Below, in pieces: positions 23,456 to 32,601 of a DNA stretch of 56,903 bases. The stretch is from a virus (Duplodnaviria; Caudoviricetes): positions 1 through 56,903 of IMG/VR virus record IMGVR_UViG_3300035670_000254; one strand, 5' to 3'. Below the pieces are notes generated by a model. That model was not told the DNA's origin, searched no databases, and saw only the letters and a list, made by a program, of their open reading frames with translations. A program made the translations under genes and the position numbers. How positions within the stretch are numbered: the first letter of the stretch is position 1; each line of letters starts with the position of its first letter.

Positions 23456-25420
23456 CTACTGATAACCCATCATTTCCAAATATTTATTGGCCTTAGCGAT
23501 GTAAACATCATGGTTGAGGTTTTCGGGAAACTCATCAGGTAACTCCATCATAGGAACACCACCAGCTGAGTTGGTTACCTTGTTACCGGAAGCTGCATAG
23601 ACCATTTCAGGATAATCCTCGGGACCATAATACCAGCGTACAACTTTCCCTAAATAGTCACCGTTACACACAGCCCCGCCTTTAACGGCGCGTACAACCG
23701 CAAACTTGCGTATATCTTTACACTTAGTGATTGTTTCTTCTACTGGTATATTATCCTTCAACTTAGCCCGAACAGCTTCAATAATAATTTCCCCGCTTGG
23801 GTTTTTAGACAGACCTGAGTCTGCAAACCAACCCTTGCATTTGAGCTTACCTTTATCATCTATCGCTACGTAGTTGTTAACGTTCGCAGAATAGAGCGCA
23901 CGATAGAAGTTGGATTCCATTTCAAATCCTGTTTGTTTCTCCCACCATTTGATAATTTGTTCGACCAGTGGTTCCTGCTCTTCGGGATAGTCAATAACAA
24001 TACCATCAGTGTTGGCAGATATAACAGGTATTCCCATCAGCTCGAAAGCTTCAATTAACATCAGCAAGGAAAGCTGACCTGTAATTGTTACCTGAATGAG
24101 TAGTTGCGGCGCATACAAGACTGACCACATTGAACCCAGCTTACCGAATGAACCGTTGATAACGATCTTCAGTGTTTGTGCTGTTTTCTTGTCACCAGTA
24201 TGTTTCGCGCGAACACGTCGATCTACAATCTTCTTATAGACGCGAAGGAATACTTCACCCAAATGCTCGGGGAATAAGCGTTGGCCAAGTATCACGCTCG
24301 GGTAATAAGAGGTAACGTCGATATCACGCTTCTTCCGGCCTTTTACATAATGGTGGCAGGCTTTTTCTTCAGTTGAGTGCAAACCACCAATACCCATCTG
24401 ATAACTTGCGTTACCGATATTGATGCGCAAGTTTTTTAGCTGCCAGGGTAGTTCAACAGAACCTTTTTCGCTAATGACGAAGTCGCATTTCTTAATCAAG
24501 TCAATAACGCTATTCATCAGCGGTGTCTGGTAAACTAGGAAGCGAGGCACGTTATATTTATATCTACGCCCTGGCTCCACCTTAGCACGCTGTACGCGCT
24601 TCCTCGTTATGCGCTGTATTTCGTGGCGTATAACATCCTCTGCGATTTGGGCATCCGAACGGGAACGAAGGTCAACACCGTATTCTTGTGACATGATCTC
24701 CCGAAGATGTATTTCATCTTGAAGCGACAAGTAAAGCGCTTCGGTAGCATCCAGGTCGTTGATACAGTAATGAAGAACTATTACCATATGGTTCCGCGTT
24801 AGCATCATGTTAGGCGGGAATGGTAAATCCTGAAGTCTCTTACGATGCAGACGGCCCGCACGTTGTTTCAATGAACCGCCAGCGGGTGCAACTTCCATGA
24901 CGTCAATGTGGTTAAGCTTCAGACGTTCCAGTTCTGCGTTTTTGAGTATGTCGCTTGGCCGCCAGTCTTCGGTAATGATACGATCGCTGGCTTCTTTAAG
25001 CTCTGCGTTAGTTGCACCAGCAAGGGCCAGAGTGAGAATAGGTTCGTCGTATCCTAAACCGTTATAGCTGATTAAGAGTACGTTATGAGCTACCCAACTT
25101 AACCATTCAACATTTAGTTCGCATCCCAGATACTTTTCAAAGTAGATTACTTTTTGAGTCAGGATATTTCGGAAAGCTATCAAGAAATAGTTAGGGTAAC
25201 ACTCGATATCGAAAACATGGGGTTCACCATTTTTAACAGCTTTGACTAGTTCTTCTTGACTATAGCGGTTATAAACAGCGCGCAAAGCTACCTCAAGGCC
25301 TGGCAGATAGTCAGGCCTTTCCCAGGTGCGTTCTGGGGGAGTTCGTTTAATTTTTTCTTTCTTAACTTTTGGAGGAGGCGGCAAGTCTTGCCAGAATAAT
25401 CCAATAGCATCAGTTCTCAT
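23456..25420 (-). CDS. DNA polymerase, family B
   Basis: Exo FDIE, YNGLGYD, YCINDL; pol DVTSYYPS, KIVINGSFGK, SANTDG. Confidence 0.92.
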   Translation of the reverse strand: MRTDAIGLFWQDLPPPPKVKKEKIKRTPPERTWERPDYLPGLEVALRAVYNRYSQEELVKAVKNGEPHVFDIECYPNYFLIAFRNILTQKVIYFEKYLGCELNVEWLSWVAHNVLLISYNGLGYDEPILTLALAGATNAELKEASDRIITEDWRPSDILKNAELERLKLNHIDVMEVAPAGGSLKQRAGRLHRKRLQDLPFPPNMMLTRNHMVIVLHYCINDLDATEALYLSLQDEIHLREIMSQEYGVDLRSRSDAQIAEDVIRHEIQRITRKRVQRAKVEPGRRYKYNVPRFLVYQTPLMNSVIDLIKKCDFVISEKGSVELPWQLKNLRINIGNASYQMGIGGLHSTEEKACHHYVKGRKKRDIDVTSYYPSVILGQRLFPEHLGEVFLRVYKKIVDRRVRAKHTGDKKTAQTLKIVINGSFGKLGSMWSVLYAPQLLIQVTITGQLSLLMLIEAFELMGIPVISANTDGIVIDYPEEQEPLVEQIIKWWEKQTGFEMESNFYRALYSANVNNYVAIDDKGKLKCKGWFADSGLSKNPSGEIIIEAVRAKLKDNIPVEETITKCKDIRKFAVVRAVKGGAVCNGDYLGKVVRWYYGPEDYPEMVYAASGNKVTNSAGGVPMMELPDEFPENLNHDVYIAKANKYLEMMGYQ

Positions 25421-26373
25421 GGTCTTTGTCCTACCAGTATGCCACGAAAATTTTTACCAAAGAATGTACACGGATTCGGATACAAAGTTAAGTCTGCGGT
25501 ATCCACATTGTTCTTAAGCAACATCAACATTTCTAAAGCATAGATGCCATGAACAGTTTCAGATTGCATGTTGTATGACGCACCTTCTGTTTCGTCTGCG
25601 TGGGTGCGAACAACTCCATTTTCGATATATACGCGCCCGTTATCCGTTGCAAACGGCTTCAGCTTCTCCAGGGCGTCAAACAACGTCGGGTCGATAGTTT
25701 GCGGATTGCTTTCCTGGCTTAACATCTTTTCAACTTGAACAGGCCATCCGTTTTCCATCAAGGTGCTACGCATCCAACAGCCCGACTCATAATGGAAAGT
25801 GATAGAATTTTCGGTTACCTGCGCTCGAACTGGAGTTTCTTTAATCTTAACCAGCGCTTCGACAGCATCAGAAGACAATACAACATCAAGAGGGAATGGG
25901 CTTCCAAACCAATATTGAGCAAGGCAGACGTTGTTGGTTGCAAATGCTGAACCTCCCTTAATAAGGACAGACATACTAAATCGCCTACTAGCATCAGAGC
26001 CGATAAAAGGACCCACAGTTTTAAGAGCGGTGATAAGTTCTGCTCCGTTAATCTCATACATTTCCCCTTCAGGGTCAACGTGCGCGCCGATTTTATCCGT
26101 ACAGGGTATATTGGCTTTAAACGCACCAGATTTAATATTTAACTTACCGTTTGCCAGCATAGTTAGCTGTGTTGCGCTTTCGCAGTTTGCTATAGCCTTT
26201 AGCATTGGGATAGCTTGCGGGGCGCACTCTAAGCTCAACGGGATAGGCGCAGCCATAGCAATGACACCATTAGTGGCCCGGACCATTCCCTCTTTGATCA
26301 AAAAGTGCGTAGTGCCTTCAACAAAGGCTCGCTTACCTACCGCAGATGATGCGAACTTGAGAGCGTCAAGCAT
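25417..26373 (-). CDS. DNA polymerase processivity clamp (DnaN/beta-like)
   Basis: Repeated ATNG/ATNN beta-clamp-type motifs; adjacent to PolB. Confidence 0.7.
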   Translation of the reverse strand: MLDALKFASSAVGKRAFVEGTTHFLIKEGMVRATNGVIAMAAPIPLSLECAPQAIPMLKAIANCESATQLTMLANGKLNIKSGAFKANIPCTDKIGAHVDPEGEMYEINGAELITALKTVGPFIGSDASRRFSMSVLIKGGSAFATNNVCLAQYWFGSPFPLDVVLSSDAVEALVKIKETPVRAQVTENSITFHYESGCWMRSTLMENGWPVQVEKMLSQESNPQTIDPTLFDALEKLKPFATDNGRVYIENGVVRTHADETEGASYNMQSETVHGIYALEMLMLLKNNVDTADLTLYPNPCTFFGKNFRGILVGQRP

Positions 26374-26545
26374 GAGTGTCTTCTCTTATCAGATAGATTT
26401 CACTTTTCCAAGGTTCCTTGAAATCAATATGCTTAATTTCAATCCTTGTTCCCGGAAACTTCATAGCCTGTTCAATTTCATCTATCCGCCACATAGCAGG
26501 AGGAACATTAGCCATCTCCTGACAATTGCGAAGTATGTTAGCCAT
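26366..26545 (-). CDS. 59-aa hypothetical protein (not in the ORF track)
   Basis: MANILRNCQEMANVPPAMWRIDEIEQAMKFPGTRIEIKHIDFKEPWKSEIYLIREDTHA; start and stop overlap both neighbours. Confidence 0.55.
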   Translation of the reverse strand: MANILRNCQEMANVPPAMWRIDEIEQAMKFPGTRIEIKHIDFKEPWKSEIYLIREDTHA

Positions 26546-27141
26546 TATGGTAACTCCATCCGAGCATTATAAGCCTCATATGCTTGTTTGATTAGTGGGA
26601 GCATGTGGTCGTATCTACTTACCCCGGACCCGTCGCAAGTATGTGCGCCTAATACATGGTACAGCATAAACCTCGCAGGACCGTTAACACGACCAATGTG
26701 AACGTGCTTACCTTTAGCCAGGGCATCCAGCACAGCATCTTGAGCTTCTTCTGATTCTTTGAATTTGTCTGTTCCCCCAATAAATAAAGCTCCAGCCTCA
26801 TCGGGCATACCATTATATCCATCTTGCGCAACAAAAGCTTTAACATAACCATCAGCGAGATGGTTAAAATCATTCCACATTTGTTGTGTTGTGATATGGC
26901 AGCCAACTTTATCGGGTATGCAAACAAATAAACATTGAGTTCTTTGTTCCCATTCTCTCTTAAGGAGAGATATGAACTCTTTTTCTCTTAGGCCGCTAAA
27001 CGCCCCGTTGTCAATCGCATATACAGGTTCACCTCGGCGATAACGAGTTAAAGGCGTTAAGAGCTGACCCGCGATACCTTCAGCCCATTGCAATTTTCTA
27101 AATGCTACTCTATCCCTGTGCCCATCTATCAGAAATTGCAT
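26545..27141 (-). CDS. Second, minimal TGT/DpdA-fold protein
   Basis: YAIDNGAF, IPDKVG, VAQDG, LFIGG, HIGRVN, TCDGSG motifs parallel the TGT barrel motifs. Confidence 0.65.
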   Translation of the reverse strand: MQFLIDGHRDRVAFRKLQWAEGIAGQLLTPLTRYRRGEPVYAIDNGAFSGLREKEFISLLKREWEQRTQCLFVCIPDKVGCHITTQQMWNDFNHLADGYVKAFVAQDGYNGMPDEAGALFIGGTDKFKESEEAQDAVLDALAKGKHVHIGRVNGPARFMLYHVLGAHTCDGSGVSRYDHMLPLIKQAYEAYNARMELP

Positions 27142-27143
27142 CG

Positions 27144-28067
27144 TCAGAACAACTCCATTATTTTTGGTTCGAAAACACGCGAATGTTTATCCTTGTTGAT
27201 GCGCTCTGCTATTTGCCGATAGCTCCACATGTTGAAGGTTGCGCGTGTTTCGTAAATTGTGGTCAAACGTTGTAAATCGAACCCCGACTCTTCAATAACT
27301 TGGTCTATATAAGCCCGCTCGAGGGGGTTGAGAGTAAGAACGTGCCTTCCGGCTTCGTGAATGGTGCCAGCTTTCTCTGAAACTCGATAAGGTACTCCGG
27401 TCGGGATGAACATCGATCCATAAGCTCCGAACTGAATCCAGGATGAAGAATCAACGGAATACCACGGGTATCTTTCCATGACTCGGACAGATGTGATACC
27501 GAAAGCATGGAACTTAGCTTTTGGACGTCCTGCACCGTCAATGATGTATTTTTCCCAGATACGATCGAGCCAGATGATAAGTTGCTCAACAGTTTTTCCG
27601 ACCATGCCGCCGAGTGTGATGTAGGGATATTTAGACATGTAATATTCAAGATATCTCTCATCCTCGCCGAAGTGAAAACAGGGTAGTGGAGTAACTCCTC
27701 TGGCTTCCATTTCATTTTGATTGCGCCAAGTCTGTAAGGGGTCGCCAATCCCATCAAGGACTGAAGCCATGATGACGCCGTCGTCTTTTCTGATGATATC
27801 TTCGTTTTCTTGAATGTAGCGACAATAGCCAGGTAGGCTGATCGTTGCTCCCATGTTCCAAGCAGAGAAAGCCCCTGAGTCAAGAAACACTTGAGCTCCG
27901 TCGGCTCGCATTTCATCAACGTATTTTTGGCGATTAACATAGTGATAGGATTCCAATATGTTGGGGATGGTATCCACAATTTCAGCTTCGCGTTCGTTCA
28001 GCTTCGGATACGTCGACTGACCCTTGCGAAAGCTGTTAGTATAAACCGCAGCAAGGTATAGATTCAT
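27144..28067 (-). CDS. dpdA: 7-deazaguanine DNA transglycosylase
   Basis: FLDSGAFSAW, LDGIGD, PCFHFGE, LGGMV, HAFG, SVDSSSW; adjacent to folE/que genes. Confidence 0.85.
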   Translation of the reverse strand: MNLYLAAVYTNSFRKGQSTYPKLNEREAEIVDTIPNILESYHYVNRQKYVDEMRADGAQVFLDSGAFSAWNMGATISLPGYCRYIQENEDIIRKDDGVIMASVLDGIGDPLQTWRNQNEMEARGVTPLPCFHFGEDERYLEYYMSKYPYITLGGMVGKTVEQLIIWLDRIWEKYIIDGAGRPKAKFHAFGITSVRVMERYPWYSVDSSSWIQFGAYGSMFIPTGVPYRVSEKAGTIHEAGRHVLTLNPLERAYIDQVIEESGFDLQRLTTIYETRATFNMWSYRQIAERINKDKHSRVFEPKIMELF

Positions 28068-28300
28068 GATTGCTCCACTAACTTAAACCAGGTTTCTACA
28101 CGCTCTTCAACAATGCGCTGGGCATTCTCAAACGTTTTGTAGGTATTACCCGTTTTCGGGAGTCCTGGCAACAGCATCGAAATGTTGAACTGAGTCTCGC
28201 CCGAAGCTTGCCAGCTAATTGCAGCTACTTTGATATTATTAATGTACGCCAGGCGAGCGTCACGAAATTTATGTTTACCTTCACGCCAAGTTAGCTTCAT
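28064..28300 (-). CDS. Hypothetical protein
   Basis: GGAG SD; coupled to dpdA start. Confidence 0.55.
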   Translation of the reverse strand: MKLTWREGKHKFRDARLAYINNIKVAAISWQASGETQFNISMLLPGLPKTGNTYKTFENAQRIVEERVETWFKLVEQS

Positions 28301-28357: not shown

Positions 28358-29005
28358 TCATTTACAGGCTTCAAGAAACTCGCGACGCCATGTATCTGCT
28401 TCAAGGTAATGCTCAATGGTGCTAATATCCGTAGCTCCCCGGAAAGCTTTGGTAATCGTGCTGGAGCCGCAGGACTGTTTAACTCCGCGCGACTCCATGC
28501 ACATATGGCGAGCGTCGATGTAGACGCATACGGCCTTCGGTTGCAGGTGTTCGTTAATTGCATCTGCGATCTGGTTAGTCAGACGTTCCTGAACCTGGAG
28601 GCGGCGGGCAAAAGCGTCAACCACACGGCTCAATTTACTGAGCCCGACAATTTTACCGTTGGGCACATAACCCACTACCGCGCGACCGATGATGGGGGCC
28701 ATGTGATGTTCGCAATGGCTATAAACCGGGATATCACGAACGATAACCATTTCGTTGGTACCTTCTGCACCGTCTTCGAACACTTTGAACAGATCGGCGA
28801 TTTCAACTTTATAACCGCCGAACCAGGTTTCATAAGCTTTCGCGACACGATCAGGGGTTTCAATGAGGCCCGGGCGCAGAAGCATACCTTCAGAACCGCC
28901 TTCGATGATGTTCAGGATACCGCTGATATAATAAGCGATTTCGTCACGTTGAGGATTTTCGGAATCTGATTCTGCTTTAATACCGTTCAGTTTTAACTGT
29001 TCCAT
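28358..29005 (-). CDS. folE: GTP cyclohydrolase I
   Basis: GLIETPDRVAK, SHCEHHMAP, GLSKLSR, RRLQVQERLT, HMCMESRGV. Confidence 0.95.
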   Translation of the reverse strand: MEQLKLNGIKAESDSENPQRDEIAYYISGILNIIEGGSEGMLLRPGLIETPDRVAKAYETWFGGYKVEIADLFKVFEDGAEGTNEMVIVRDIPVYSHCEHHMAPIIGRAVVGYVPNGKIVGLSKLSRVVDAFARRLQVQERLTNQIADAINEHLQPKAVCVYIDARHMCMESRGVKQSCGSSTITKAFRGATDISTIEHYLEADTWRREFLEACK

Positions 29006-29577
29006 TATTTGCTGTACTCCACATGGCATTTAGAAGTTTCTTCGATGACGCATTTTACCAGCTCAACGCCATGTTCGGCAAGCAACATCGGGCCAATAAC
29101 GTCGACCATATGAGCGGCCAGGTTTTCAGCGGTAGGGTTGAAAGGCAGCGATACCAGCGAATTGAAGAAATGATTTTGATCATTTTCTGAGATGTACTCT
29201 GCCATTTCCTCTTCAAATTCCACCAGGGTTTTCAAACCATTGATCAGATCATCCTTTTCCCAATGCAGGAATTTATGATCCCAATTATCTTCCAGCCACT
29301 GGCAGAGTGTAGTCTTAACAACACTGAAGTCGATAACGCGACCAACATCGTCCAGCTTGGTACGATCGTTAACCGTCATGTTGCGGTAAGTCGGTTTAAA
29401 TCCTTGGCCCGGAATATGGGCAGCTTTACCCGTTGCGACCGCCACAGTTTTCATTTTCGGCGCGACGTGGAAGTGAAACACGTAATTGTGGCCATGCAGG
29501 TGGCGGCATTTGCTTTCGTGACCTACAACACGATGGCCCGCGCAAATTTCATGTGAACGAATAACTTTGTAAGACAT
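29005..29577 (-). CDS. queD: 6-carboxytetrahydropterin synthase
   Basis: AGHRV...CRHLHGHNY, IDFS, DHKFL, PTAENLA, EET. Confidence 0.9.
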   Translation of the reverse strand: MSYKVIRSHEICAGHRVVGHESKCRHLHGHNYVFHFHVAPKMKTVAVATGKAAHIPGQGFKPTYRNMTVNDRTKLDDVGRVIDFSVVKTTLCQWLEDNWDHKFLHWEKDDLINGLKTLVEFEEEMAEYISENDQNHFFNSLVSLPFNPTAENLAAHMVDVIGPMLLAEHGVELVKCVIEETSKCHVEYSK

Positions 29578-29617: not shown

Positions 29618-30103
29618 TTAGGCGACTGTTAAGCCGTTCCGTTTTCTGTTTTCGTAGATGACGTATAATAACGCCGAAGCAAAGAATTTGGAAAGGCTCA
29701 TTGCAAGGATAGATCCCCAGCTGGCATAGCCTATCATATGCAGGAAGATGAAGGAGTCTACCGGGACTGCGATCATAGAGCTGAACACGACCCGTTCATG
29801 GAACGGTTTTTTAGTGATCGTGAATATTGCATAGTCCAGCAGCTCGCTAACCGCGAAAGATGTCACAGACGCGACAACGACAACCGGGTCGCCCAGCCAG
29901 TAGCTAATTAAACAGGCCAGCGCTATAGCCCATAGGACGTGGTGGCCTGCGCTACGTTGCGCGTAGTCGCGTAGCACGAACACACAGCCCACGAAGAAAG
30001 CCATAAGCGGCACAGCGCCCAACGGCGTGGGCACGATTGGCAGGTAGCTGAAGCCCAGGTTTACGAACACAACCATTAAGAGGTAAGCGAAAATGAACTT
30101 CAT
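29618..30103 (-). CDS. yhhQ: PreQ0/preQ1 transporter (VUT/YhhQ family)
   Basis: Multi-TM; FVLRDYAQ, ASVTSFAVSELLD, PVDSFIF; within the que cluster. Confidence 0.75.
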   Translation of the reverse strand: MKFIFAYLLMVVFVNLGFSYLPIVPTPLGAVPLMAFFVGCVFVLRDYAQRSAGHHVLWAIALACLISYWLGDPVVVVASVTSFAVSELLDYAIFTITKKPFHERVVFSSMIAVPVDSFIFLHMIGYASWGSILAMSLSKFFASALLYVIYENRKRNGLTVA

Positions 30104-30780
30104 TTGTTTTTCTCCTGATGTTGGAAGAGAGCGCGTTCAACCGACGAAAGTATATCGATTAAATCTTGCTCGTAGGTTTTGTGACCGCGCTGACCAGGAG
30201 CTAAGATCTTTTTCAAAGCATGTTGCAGCGGGCCGGAGGTCACTTCATAACAATCAATCACGTCGTAAACATCAATGAAAACGCCGGGTTTGATTTCGCG
30301 CTTATATTTGTCGTTAGAGTAAAAAGGGCCAACGTCAGGCTCTAAGCCAGCCTTTTCAAGTTCTTCGCGGGTAAGAGGTTCTTTGCTAAAAACTTGATGG
30401 AATACTTCGTCAGCTTTCCACGGAGCATTGTCTGGATTAATTTTAATATCGGTCGCCCCGCTTGTGCTAACCCCAGGGCGAGAAGGAAATTCGCTAGCCA
30501 GTCGCCAGCGTTTAATCCCGTTCGGAGGTAAAGTTTCCAGTTCAGGAGAAGTATTATAAGTCGCTTTAATCTTAGCGTCGTTAATTTCAACATTCTCAAG
30601 AATGCTACCATTGACAGTTAAGATATCGAAGTTAAAACCCGCATCCCGCATAAGAGCAATGCACTCGTTGGATAGCTGCTGGCTCTGAACTCCACCGTTA
30701 TGAATAGAAACCCAACCTTCTACATCAACAATACCCTGTAAGCGGTCGCAATATCGAAGTAATGTTTCACGTCTACCCAT
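30100..30780 (-). CDS. Protein with C-terminal DUF3310-like domain
   Basis: IDVYDVIDCYEV...QHALKKILAPGQRGHK...QDL motif. Confidence 0.55.
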   Translation of the reverse strand: MGRRETLLRYCDRLQGIVDVEGWVSIHNGGVQSQQLSNECIALMRDAGFNFDILTVNGSILENVEINDAKIKATYNTSPELETLPPNGIKRWRLASEFPSRPGVSTSGATDIKINPDNAPWKADEVFHQVFSKEPLTREELEKAGLEPDVGPFYSNDKYKREIKPGVFIDVYDVIDCYEVTSGPLQHALKKILAPGQRGHKTYEQDLIDILSSVERALFQHQEKNK

Positions 30781-30817: not shown

Positions 30818-31558
30818 TTAGAATTTAAAAGGGTTATTTTCTACAAAGGCTGAAAAGCCTTTTTCACGAAGTTGGCAAGCAGGGCACTCGCCGCAGCCAT
30901 AGCCCCACACGTTGTCAGTAGTGTGGTCACCATTATAGCAGGTATGACTATCTTCCAGCACAACTGTCAGAAAATCGACTGCTTTAGCCAGTGCGAACGT
31001 TTCAGCTTTATTTAACCACATTAACGGCGTGGCAATCTCGATATTGGTCTGATAGCCGACGTTTAATGCTGTTTGAAGCAAACGAATAAACTCGTCGCGG
31101 CAATCAGGATAACCGCTGTAGTCGGTTTCGCAGACGCCAGTAATGAGCGTATCTGCACCAACTTTTTGAGCGTATGCGTGAGCTGTAGTTAAGAACAGCG
31201 CATTGCGGTTCGGTACAAAAGAGGCCGGAAGGTTGGAGTTCTGCGCGTGTTTAGCGCTAACGTCTTTTTGTTCGGTGCCGCGAATGAGCGCGCTATTGCC
31301 GATAGATTGCAGCGCAGGAATCGAAAACACGGTGAAGGGTACGTTGTGTTCTTCACAGATGCGCGCGGCGCAGTGGATTTCAACTTCGTGCTTTTGTCCG
31401 TAGACAAAACCAACAGCGTGAACAGTTTCAAAGTTGCGAAGGGCAAGGCCCAGGCAAGTTACGGAGTCCTGACCGCCAGACAGGACAACAACGGCGGATT
31501 TGCCCTTCACACTTTCAACAACGTTGTACACTTTTTCAGATGATACGTTCATAGTCAA
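30818..31558 (-). CDS. queC: 7-cyano-7-deazaguanine (preQ0) synthase
   Basis: SGGQDS, YGQKH, VPNRN, YPDCR, TCY...CGECPAC. Confidence 0.95.
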   Translation of the reverse strand: MTMNVSSEKVYNVVESVKGKSAVVVLSGGQDSVTCLGLALRNFETVHAVGFVYGQKHEVEIHCAARICEEHNVPFTVFSIPALQSIGNSALIRGTEQKDVSAKHAQNSNLPASFVPNRNALFLTTAHAYAQKVGADTLITGVCETDYSGYPDCRDEFIRLLQTALNVGYQTNIEIATPLMWLNKAETFALAKAVDFLTVVLEDSHTCYNGDHTTDNVWGYGCGECPACQLREKGFSAFVENNPFKF

Positions 31559-31825: not shown

Positions 31826-32527
31826 TTACTCCACATTTAACAGTTTATGAATCTGAAGTTGAACGGTATAGTTAAACTTCATTGCACTTTCCAGGACCGC
31901 TGCAACGTTGTCGGCGTTATAGCCAGCGTCTTGCTCGTCCATCGGTTGCAGGTAGATTTTACCCTTAAATGACTTTGGAGGCCTCGCAATAAATGGCGTA
32001 GCTCGGTGATCAAGAGCTTGCAAGGGTAAACCGTCCTCCTGTCGCACGCTGTTAGCTTTTAAAACGTACTTAAAGGCGTTGGCCCGATGCAGGGCGCTCG
32101 GATGCAACTTAGCGGTTTTCGGCGAGCATACAACCGTGACCAACTGCGACAGCTCGAGAGGAATAGCCATGCTGCCGTTGGTTTCGATTTGCACGTCGAA
32201 ATCGTTTTCAATCAGGAAATCGCAGAAAGGAGTGATGTTCTGACGGAAAGGTTCGCCGCCGGAAATGACGATCAGGTTTGCGTTGCTGCGCGTTTCCATT
32301 TTCTGGTGATACACGTGGTCAAGAATATCGCCGTAGGTCATACGTTCGCGACCTTCAGTATATTCAGTATCACAACCAGGGCACTGGAGATTGCAGCCAG
32401 CAAGACGAACGAAAACAGCAGGGCGACCGCAGAAAGGGCCTTCACCTTGAATAGTGCTGAAAATGGAATGAACTTCGAGGGTAGATTGATAATCTTTCTT
32501 TTCGGGGGTCTGAGAGTTCAGCTTCAT
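31826..32527 (-). CDS. queE: 7-carboxy-7-deazaguanine synthase (radical SAM)
   Basis: IFSTIQGEG, RLAGCNLQCPGCDT, SGGEP, IETNG, SPK, QIHK. Confidence 0.95.
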   Translation of the reverse strand: MKLNSQTPEKKDYQSTLEVHSIFSTIQGEGPFCGRPAVFVRLAGCNLQCPGCDTEYTEGRERMTYGDILDHVYHQKMETRSNANLIVISGGEPFRQNITPFCDFLIENDFDVQIETNGSMAIPLELSQLVTVVCSPKTAKLHPSALHRANAFKYVLKANSVRQEDGLPLQALDHRATPFIARPPKSFKGKIYLQPMDEQDAGYNADNVAAVLESAMKFNYTVQLQIHKLLNVE

Positions 32528-32570
32528 GGTTTTATCCCTGTTTCCTAGGCGAGTGAGCCAGATTTTAGTC

Positions 32571-32601
32571 AAAAATAAAGCGCCCGAAGTGGGGCGCTTT
32601 T
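32571..32601 (-). terminator. Terminator
   Basis: AAAGCGCCC...GGGCGCTTT stem with flanking A/T runs. Confidence 0.7.

Follow-up and report, generated by a model that had tools for sequence, protein, structure and literature searches.

Viral enzymes that insert 7-deazaguanines into DNA have been sorted into the subfamilies DpdA1 to DpdA4. The portions of PMC10516641 used here argue that each virus with synthesis genes carries one of them, and hold all known viral 7-deazaguanine DNA modifications to depend on a DpdA. In phage CAjan the deoxynucleoside dPreQ0 of the base 7-cyano-7-deazaguanine (preQ0) is found at both GA and GGC motifs (parts of PMC6884629 and PMC7544227), and deletion of dpdA abolishes all modification, DpdA thus being experimentally essential (excerpts of PMC6884629). 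Here we analyse a 198-aa protein (P0001) encoded directly after dpdA in the 56.9-kb record of a Queuovirinae-like siphophage (IMG/VR virus record IMGVR_UViG_3300035670_000254, positions 1-56,903, Caudoviricetes; this whole stretch is called the window). In our reading, to which we give a probability of roughly 0.6, P0001 is a minimal barrel base-exchange enzyme from a remote branch of the tRNA-guanine transglycosylase (TGT)/DpdA enzymes, acting as a second preQ0 insertase beside DpdA1 in this phage and as the sole insertase in many others.

The dpdA gene of the window (product P0002) is canonical, as a preliminary description of this stretch had it. P0002 shares 61% identity with CAjan DpdA over its full length (residues 1-307) and carries the motifs FLDSGAF and SVDSSSW. 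Across 24 aligned homologues, residues D63, S64, F67, D105, H132, G153, G154, F189 and D206 do not vary; the same residue numbers are named for CAjan DpdA, and catalytic roles assigned, in the sections of PMC7544227 consulted. Its AlphaFold2 (AF2) model has a predicted local distance difference test score (pLDDT) of 82. The top 50 Foldseek matches of this model in the PDB are all TGT or DpdA (best E 1.7e-4), including the bacterial DpdA 7ui4 at E 2.0e-4.

Short DpdA-like genes in 7-deazaguanine operons

Gene context in other viruses is the strongest and decisive line of evidence. Pattern scanning of IMG/VR turned up 104 confirmed relatives, of which the best 80 loci (L numbers below) were kept for context counts; their open reading frames (ORFs) were scanned with phmmer and small hidden Markov models, and samples were checked with Pfam. 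At least one of QueC, QueD, QueE and FolE is encoded in 53 of the 80 loci, mostly abutting the short gene, and three further loci have an abutting transporter gene of the Vut_1/YhhQ type alone. All ten QueD candidates sent to Pfam are PTPS proteins above cut-off, and the genes of L011, L013, L036 and L073 are Pfam-confirmed as well. Many loci are near-copies of each other. Clustering at 70% identity leaves 40 clusters; a que gene is present in 18 of them and yhhQ alone in three, compared with a crude base rate of 0.65% for phage records in which QueC is detectable (328 of 50,697). A link of the short family to 7-deazaguanine metabolism is thus supported by its gene context in many phages.

The short gene is found at various places within these operons. 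Examples are the orders QueD-short-QueE-QueC-FolE (L011), QueD-short-QueC-QueE (L013), QueD-QueC-short-terminase (L073) and PolA-QueC-short-clamp loader (L036). The family-A DNA polymerase gene of the latter (L036:6754-9369) contains a LAGLIDADG homing-endonuclease-like insert. Apparent QueD-short fusions in L034, L035 and L066 were rejected as stop-to-stop ORF artefacts; there is no PTPS domain in frame, and QueD is a separate abutting ORF.

A DpdA1-type gene is present in only one of the 80 loci (L008). Moreover, in five whole records (CheckV completeness 86, 25, 34, 100 and 96%) the profiles phrog_887, phrog_7068, PF01702 and NF041059 match nothing but the short gene. Since que genes accompany it in 53 loci, a DpdA1-type gene in one, and no other DpdA/TGT-like gene is seen in the records that are 86-100% complete, the family most likely represents a stand-alone minimal DNA 7-deazaguanine transglycosylase. 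The idea of a second enzyme beside DpdA is partly supported, the gene being tied to 7-deazaguanine genes; it needs revision in that the gene is neither peculiar to the window phage nor an add-on to DpdA, but belongs to a large family that elsewhere provides the sole DpdA/TGT-like gene next to those for preQ0.

Two TGT-fold paralogues in tandem could also suggest that P0001 plays a non-catalytic or regulatory part and joins DpdA1 in a heterodimer, as in the eukaryotic pair QTRT1/QTRT2. TGT enzymes are dimeric, and the eukaryotic enzyme combines a catalytic with a non-catalytic paralogue. Such a role seems very improbable to us: no DpdA1-type gene is seen in 79 of the 80 viral loci, the placement relative to dpdA is not conserved, and the putative catalytic residues are invariant family-wide, unlike those of a degenerate subunit. 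A structure prediction for the complex of DpdA1 and the short protein returned a score of 0.00 and no answer, which counts neither way.

Mycobacterium phage StevieRay encodes a Vut_1/YhhQ-type transporter (gp53, L003:4364-4894, 47.9 bits) directly upstream of its short gene. M. smegmatis is reported to lack the entire queuosine pathway in the part of PMC6884629 dealing with it. This suggests that StevieRay imports a deazaguanine or a related base. The short gene also abuts such a transporter gene in L069, L071 and L072, which would fit salvage. In a further alternative, the protein binds guanine or a 7-deazaguanine without acting on DNA; it might swap or liberate the bases of tRNA, nucleosides or nucleotides for salvage or precursor supply. 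The catalytic barrel stands alone, without C-terminal extension or DNA-binding module, and family members occur in phages without que genes, both in keeping with such a role. On the other hand, the short gene is the sole DpdA/TGT-like gene in records with preQ0 genes, whose pathways would otherwise have no route into DNA, and R151, R157 and K128 are near-invariant basic residues next to the active-site motifs. Together with the dependence of viral 7-deazaguanine DNA modifications on a DpdA, as held in the pertinent part of PMC10516641, these points make a function outside DNA improbable in our view, though less so than a partner role.

Conserved residues and distribution of the family

The preliminary description had listed the motifs DNGAF, LFIGG, HIGRVN and DGSG in the ORF directly after dpdA, and all of them are present. 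In P0001 they read AIDNGAF (with D44), IPDKVG (D77), FIGG (G122 and G123), HIGRVN (H148, R151 and N153) and CDGSG (D170). D77, T85, Q106, G122, G123 and D170 are invariant in all 108 diverse members aligned. D44, N45, P76, K128, H148, G150, R151, N153 and R157 are retained in 101-107 of them, with D44 in 105 and N45 in 101.

One search gave 435 homologues of P0001, the closest of them on metagenome contigs 55-60 kb long, and 1472 cluster representatives (50% identity) match the family at E ≤ 1e-3. Nearly all members have lengths of ~190-225 aa (median 208 aa). The nearest clusters in the ESM Atlas are ~80% viral. Among 50,697 phage records 25 match the family, three of them enterobacterial or vibrio phages, while scanning 185,579 genomes of bacteria and archaea for the pattern yielded only two loci with a family member. 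One of these two lies on a contig of a Pirellulaceae metagenome-assembled genome (L104:7887-8682); its gene is split across two overlapping frames, with no que genes within 8 kb.

Fused forms of at least 348 aa were sought and none was found, which is weak evidence. The extra parts of the longer proteins P0143, P0212, P0238, P0139 and P0221 contain no Pfam domain. The best viral structural match of P0001 comes from an uncultured marine virus, whose protein of 499 aa (BFVD A0A0F7L9Z1; TM-score 0.78, E 4e-10, 22% identity) is a longer form that contains the short-protein domain.

P0001 belongs to no Pfam family and has no useful NCBIfam match, including NF041059. Some members carry the SEA-PHAGES label 'DpdA-like tRNA-guanine transglycosylase', for example Arthrobacter phage Sonali gp81 and StevieRay gp54, which match the family profile at E 4e-63 each and share 33-36% identity with P0001. 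In the literature searched, no paper characterises these short proteins or names a further DpdA subfamily, though published per-virus DpdA lists might already include them, or phages having two DpdA genes. The family is thus already flagged in database annotation, uncharacterised in the literature searched, and a subfamily of a known kind of enzyme.

Fold and remote homology to DpdA and TGT

An AF2 model of P0001, built on the family alignment, is an eight-stranded TIM barrel of high confidence (pLDDT 97.8, predicted TM-score 0.92). The chain stops after helix 8 at residue 198, and the TIM-barrel structure matches span residues 1-198. Foldseek against the PDB gave a transaldolase at E 8.5e-5, followed by a long run of TGT entries from E 1.0e-4 with TM-scores of 0.53-0.55; this is comparable to the score of the bona fide DpdA1 against TGT (1.7e-4). 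Re-ranking of the matches with VIA-align does not separate TGT from pyruvate kinase barrels. Hence the TGT-like fold that had been proposed is borne out as a TIM barrel, whereas the model by itself does not single out TGT. Among viral predicted structures, five of the top ten matches of P0001 are annotated as queuine tRNA-ribosyltransferases or are the 259-aa phiST protein. DpdA-type proteins are enriched near the top of this list (Mycobacterium phage Bella96, a Sulfolobales virus, Arthrobacter phages Mufasa8 and Sonali, the phiST protein).

A direct BLASTP comparison of P0001 with P0002 is not significant (best E 0.24). Comparing profiles, as the preliminary description had proposed, hhalign aligns the 108-member family with DpdA1 at E 4.1e-5 and a probability of 70%, pairing DNGAF with DSGAF, PDKVG....T with LDGIGD...T, and FIGG with LGGMV. 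A looser extension covers 178 columns (E 2.4e-5, probability 76%) and adds the pairs H148~H187 and D170~D206 at low posterior confidence, whereas the pairing of D44 with D63 of DpdA1 has good confidence. The family profile further aligns weakly with Rosebush DpdA (E 1.3e-4) and with CPT_0056 of phage CP220 (E 2.4e-5, probability 75%, 73 columns). Conversely, the DpdA1 profile phrog_887 matches the short gene of the viral record G005 at E 2.6e-9, while P0001 itself is unmatched by phrog_887 at E ≤ 0.01 and matches phrog_15826 alone. These comparisons support a remote homology of the 198-aa protein to DpdA/TGT in which both aspartates are probably aligned; the claim that the catalytic pair is retained agrees with this.

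An unrelated TIM barrel of the phosphodiesterase, aldolase or kinase kind, with motif parallels to DpdA owing to convergence or chance, would account for structural scores that do not part TGT from pyruvate kinase or transaldolase. Glycerophosphodiester phosphodiesterase proteins are among the viral fold matches, and eight of the 108 members have weak Pfam matches to EAL (best E 0.0054). However, five motifs are collinear with DpdA1, phrog_887 recognises a family member as noted above, DUF6610, the DpdA4 family, is the closest of the named ESM Atlas clusters, and 18 of the 40 dereplicated clusters lie inside or beside preQ0 operons. We therefore consider an unrelated barrel hardly credible.

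Relation to the published DpdA subfamilies

CAjan (DpdA1), nt-1 and Dp-1 (DpdA2), Orion (a singleton DpdA) and HVTV-1 have no match to the family profile, which scores only 17-20 bits in Rosebush and CP220 (19.8 bits, E 3.4e-5 in CP220). Membership of P0001 in DpdA1 was rejected on the missing phrog_887 match, the BLASTP result and the missing match of the profile in CAjan. DpdA2 was rejected as hhalign against the nt-1 protein (YP_008125322, 464 aa) gives E 0.29 and a probability of 0.2%, with no match in nt-1 or Dp-1. DpdA4 was rejected as none of the 108 members matches PF20314 significantly (27-bit cut-off), the one weak match having E 0.048, and hhalign gives E 0.09. The TGT family PF01702 was rejected in the absence of a match at E ≤ 1 and with a chain ending after helix 8. 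Based on these nulls and the weak scores in Rosebush and CP220, the family appears in sequence as a separate branch, set apart from DpdA1, DpdA2 and DpdA4 and bearing only a remote likeness to DpdA3.

DpdA1 (CAjan/9g DpdA, P0002) and the family share the TIM-barrel core, the collinear motifs D-S/N-G-A-F, D-x-x-G-D/x-x-x-x-T, G-G, H-x-G and D-S/G-S, and a location within or beside folE, queD, queE and queC. Unlike DpdA1, P0001 is ~110 residues shorter, without a counterpart of DpdA1 residues 215-307, and has N45 in place of S64; H132 of DpdA1 has no clear counterpart, Q106 being nearby.

The DpdA3 proteins (Cellulophaga phage phiST CGPG_00065, Campylobacter phages) resemble the family in being small (258-259 aa), distant from TGT and equipped with 'DN..F' and 'PD..GD...T' motifs. 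The 259-aa phiST protein is a structural match of P0001 (TM-score 0.57, E 1.6e-3). CPT_0056 and M4SLA5 are presumably the DpdA3 proteins of the published work. DpdA3 differs in being tied to pathways ending at the stage of 7-carboxy-7-deazaguanine (CDG) and to complete replacement of G, according to the sections of Cui et al. 2023 (PMC10516641) used here, whereas most short-gene loci include QueC.

DpdA4/DUF6610 (PF20314; Halovirus HVTV-1 gp69) has a model length of 198 positions and an 'S-x-D-G' motif near the C-terminus, both reminiscent of the family, and by language-model features (0.91) no named ESM Atlas cluster comes closer to the family than DUF6610. Yet PF20314 scores 192 bits on HVTV-1 and has no match in four short-family records (G001, G004, StevieRay and Sonali). 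Compared with TGT (PF01702) and bacterial DpdA (7ui4), P0001 is about half the size, lacks the zinc subdomain and the C-terminal domains, and matches neither PF01702 nor NF041059. The C-terminal zinc subdomain is a hallmark of tRNA-guanine transglycosylases.

Proposed mechanism

The alignment to DpdA1, together with the TGT mechanism outlined in the relevant part of PMC7544227, suggests the mechanism considered here. The putative base-exchange residues would follow each other in TGT order: D44 after strand 3 (DNGAF), then PD-x-x-G-x-x-x-x-T (D77, T85) and Q106, the Gly-Gly pair after strand 6 (G122, G123), H148/R151/N153, and the invariant D170 after strand 8 (DGSG). D170 may serve as nucleophile at C1' of a flipped-out deoxyguanosine in double-stranded DNA, upon which guanine would leave. 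PreQ0, presumably supplied by the co-transcribed FolE, QueD, QueE and QueC, would occupy the same pocket, which D77, Q106 and G122-G123 are predicted to build. D44 would deprotonate preQ0, and resolution of the covalent intermediate would yield dPreQ0. In the window phage, acquisition would have brought the short gene into the variable slot that separates dpdA from the clamp gene, and it would be co-transcribed with the pathway.

In the presence of DpdA1, the second insertase most likely would modify guanines in sequence contexts outside the reach of DpdA1, or else add redundant capacity. Going further, the short proteins might constitute a fifth, barrel-only DpdA subfamily that is the sole insertase of many uncultured phages; here two insertases would split motifs between them, or one would insert another deazaguanine, so that the pattern would be denser or two-layered compared with single-DpdA phages. 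We put this extended view forward tentatively, as a possibility that is doubtful in its entirety.

Pairing with DpdA1 and the variable slot

The 198-aa ORF is a real gene. Two nucleotides separate it from dpdA (TGA-CG-ATG), and a GGAG lies ~10 nt ahead of its ATG. It had been called more AT-rich than dpdA. The direction of this difference is correct (GC 43.9% vs 46.0% for dpdA and 47.3% for the window; GC at third codon positions, GC3, 35% vs 48%), but the effect is weak, as 13% of all 597-nt windows have a GC content equal to or below that of the gene. The position between dpdA and the clamp gene is likewise correct except that a 59-aa ORF intervenes before the clamp. This ORF is a resident small gene outside the enzyme pair; it has weak similarity (E 5e-5) to the 54-aa ORF that Klebsiella phage K4PH164 carries at this position.

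In DNA sequence the window comes closest to Enterobacter phage EC151 (81%, over a part of the query) and to K4PH164. The similarity to both ends exactly at the boundary of dpdA and the short gene, and these nearest relatives are without the short gene. The slot between dpdA and the clamp gene (window 26366-27141; L108:3586-4005; L109:3840-4004) is variable cargo space. It holds the short gene and the 59-aa ORF in the window, an unrelated 139-aa protein annotated as 'swarming motility protein' in EC151, and the 54-aa ORF alone in K4PH164. The break in similarity at this slot, the absence from CAjan and the low GC3 indicate that the short gene is accessory and moves horizontally in Queuovirinae.

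The window, Vibrio phage R29Z, L008 and the distant Arthrobacter phage Sonali each combine an intact short gene with a DpdA1-type gene. A maximum-likelihood tree was built from 46 rows, of which 41 represent the 40 clusters and the others are Sonali, StevieRay, R29Z, Synechococcus phage Ssp-JY42 and the window; the frameshifted genes of SHIN8 and phiG7 (see below) and the other 39 loci were left out. Members linked to que genes are present in every major branch. The window protein falls into a well-supported clade of seven (99/95) with R29Z and L008, with L004 and L005 (QueD-QueC-QueE-short, no DpdA1 within 6 kb), and with two loci having neither. The label 'both' changes four times on the tree, at least three of the changes being forced by well-supported branches, and so the pairing arose more than once. 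Gene order differs by lineage, with dpdA-short-clamp in the window vs clamp-short-pol in R29Z and the Seuratviruses SHIN8 and phiG7.

Evidence weighing against an active insertase

Several observations speak against our interpretation. On the side of genomes, 24 of the 80 loci show neither a que nor a yhhQ gene, Ssp-JY42 and similar phages carry the short gene alone, and the absence of DpdA1 is weak evidence because many contigs are short. In SHIN8 (L001:6001-6596) and phiG7 (L103:3001-3596) the short gene is frameshifted by an identical 1-nt deletion near codon 91; the two phages were sequenced independently, and both gene halves are still recognisable (E 1.5e-28 and 3.3e-37). CAjan has no homologue of the short gene in a family-profile search, yet is modified at GA and GGC; as it manages with dpdA alone, the short gene is not needed by a Queuovirinae phage. 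On the side of the protein, hhalign probabilities amount to 54-76%, with low posterior confidence for the C-terminal alignment bearing the nucleophile. PF01702 is unmatched at E ≤ 1 by P0001 and all 108 members, and neither P0001 nor the family profile has a meaningful sequence match in the PDB, which also holds for the DpdA1 profile. P0001 is not basic (isoelectric point 6.4), shows no evident DNA-binding module and is without the ~100-residue C-terminal region of DpdA1. The literature searched holds no biochemical or genetic data on any family member.

In the most serious alternative, the protein works as a 7-deazaguanine DNA insertase, yet its activity is redundant in the window phage; it would be a horizontally acquired passenger without a role of its own, making the same product at targets overlapping those of DpdA1 and prone to decay. 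The patchy spread (three enterobacterial or vibrio records among the 25, vs 328 with QueC), the varying gene position between lineages, the deletion shared by SHIN8 and phiG7, a GC3 below that of the neighbouring genes, and the sufficiency of DpdA alone for CAjan (portions of PMC6884629) are all consistent with a passenger. Against this, the gene is intact in the window, R29Z and L008 with all family-invariant residues present, it is coupled to dpdA within 2 nt, and co-occurrence with DpdA1 arose at least twice (Sonali vs the enterobacterial clade). In short, the frameshifted copies and CAjan with DpdA alone argue that the short gene is dispensable, whereas its intact state, its tight coupling to dpdA and the pairing that arose repeatedly and independently speak for its use. 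We hold redundancy to be unlikely, albeit clearly less so than a function outside DNA, and favour the second insertase.

The family escapes the Pfam models for TGT and DUF6610 and the NCBIfam model for DpdA, yet lies inside preQ0 operons of many uncultured phages seemingly without any other insertase. If active, its members would be the smallest known nucleic-acid transglycosylases, useful for dissecting DNA recognition and motif choice by a bare barrel and as a compact tool for site-specific exchange of DNA bases. Surveys that use a dpdA match to split nucleic-acid from secondary-metabolite pathways (e.g. bioRxiv 10.64898/2026.04.15.718813, in the sections considered) would then misclassify such loci. 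Phages with two active enzymes would moreover offer a natural test of whether two insertases broaden protection against restriction and other DNA-targeting defences.

Gene array of the window

The genes of the array lie on the minus strand and are listed in Table 1 in the order of transcription. A plain QueC without amidotransferase domain lets preQ0 be expected as end product, and the gene content of the array predicts dPreQ0 in the phage DNA, as in CAjan.

Table 1. Features of the dpdA region in the window (coordinates are those of the window; E values refer to the named profile).
Feature	Coordinates	Strand	Match or remark
QueE-like radical SAM enzyme	31826..32572	-	PF13353 and PF04055; EC151 gene at same position annotated QueE
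QueC, 246 aa, plain, without amidotransferase domain	30818..31558	-	PF06508, E 2e-74
226-aa ORF inside que cluster	30100-30780	-	no Pfam family
YhhQ-like (Vut_1) putative preQ0 transporter	29618..30103	-	PF02592, E 1.9e-5, 25.5 bits, slightly below 27.2-bit cut-off
QueD (PTPS family)	29005..29577	-	PF01242, E 2.7e-18
FolE (GTP cyclohydrolase I)	28358..29029	-	PF01227, E 6.3e-61
78-aa ORF upstream of dpdA	28064..28300	-	no Pfam family
dpdA (P0002), canonical phage DpdA, DpdA1 type, 307 aa	27144..28067	-	phrog_887, E 7.5e-81
198-aa minimal DpdA-like TIM-barrel protein (P0001)	26545..27141	-	phrog_15826 'unknown function', E 1.3e-20; no Pfam match
59-aa ORF between 198-aa gene and clamp gene	26366..26545	-	start overlaps stop of 198-aa gene; no Pfam match
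Sliding clamp gene	25417-26373	-	
DNA polymerase gene	23456-25420	-	

The 226-aa ORF of the que cluster has a homologue at the matching place in SHIN8 (E 3e-13); EC151 and K4PH164 hold uncharacterised genes there. The EC151 gene at the position of the YhhQ-like gene is annotated as a putative PreQ0 transporter. With a GC3 of 65% vs 35-53% in its neighbours, the YhhQ-like gene has a composition unusual for the window phage.

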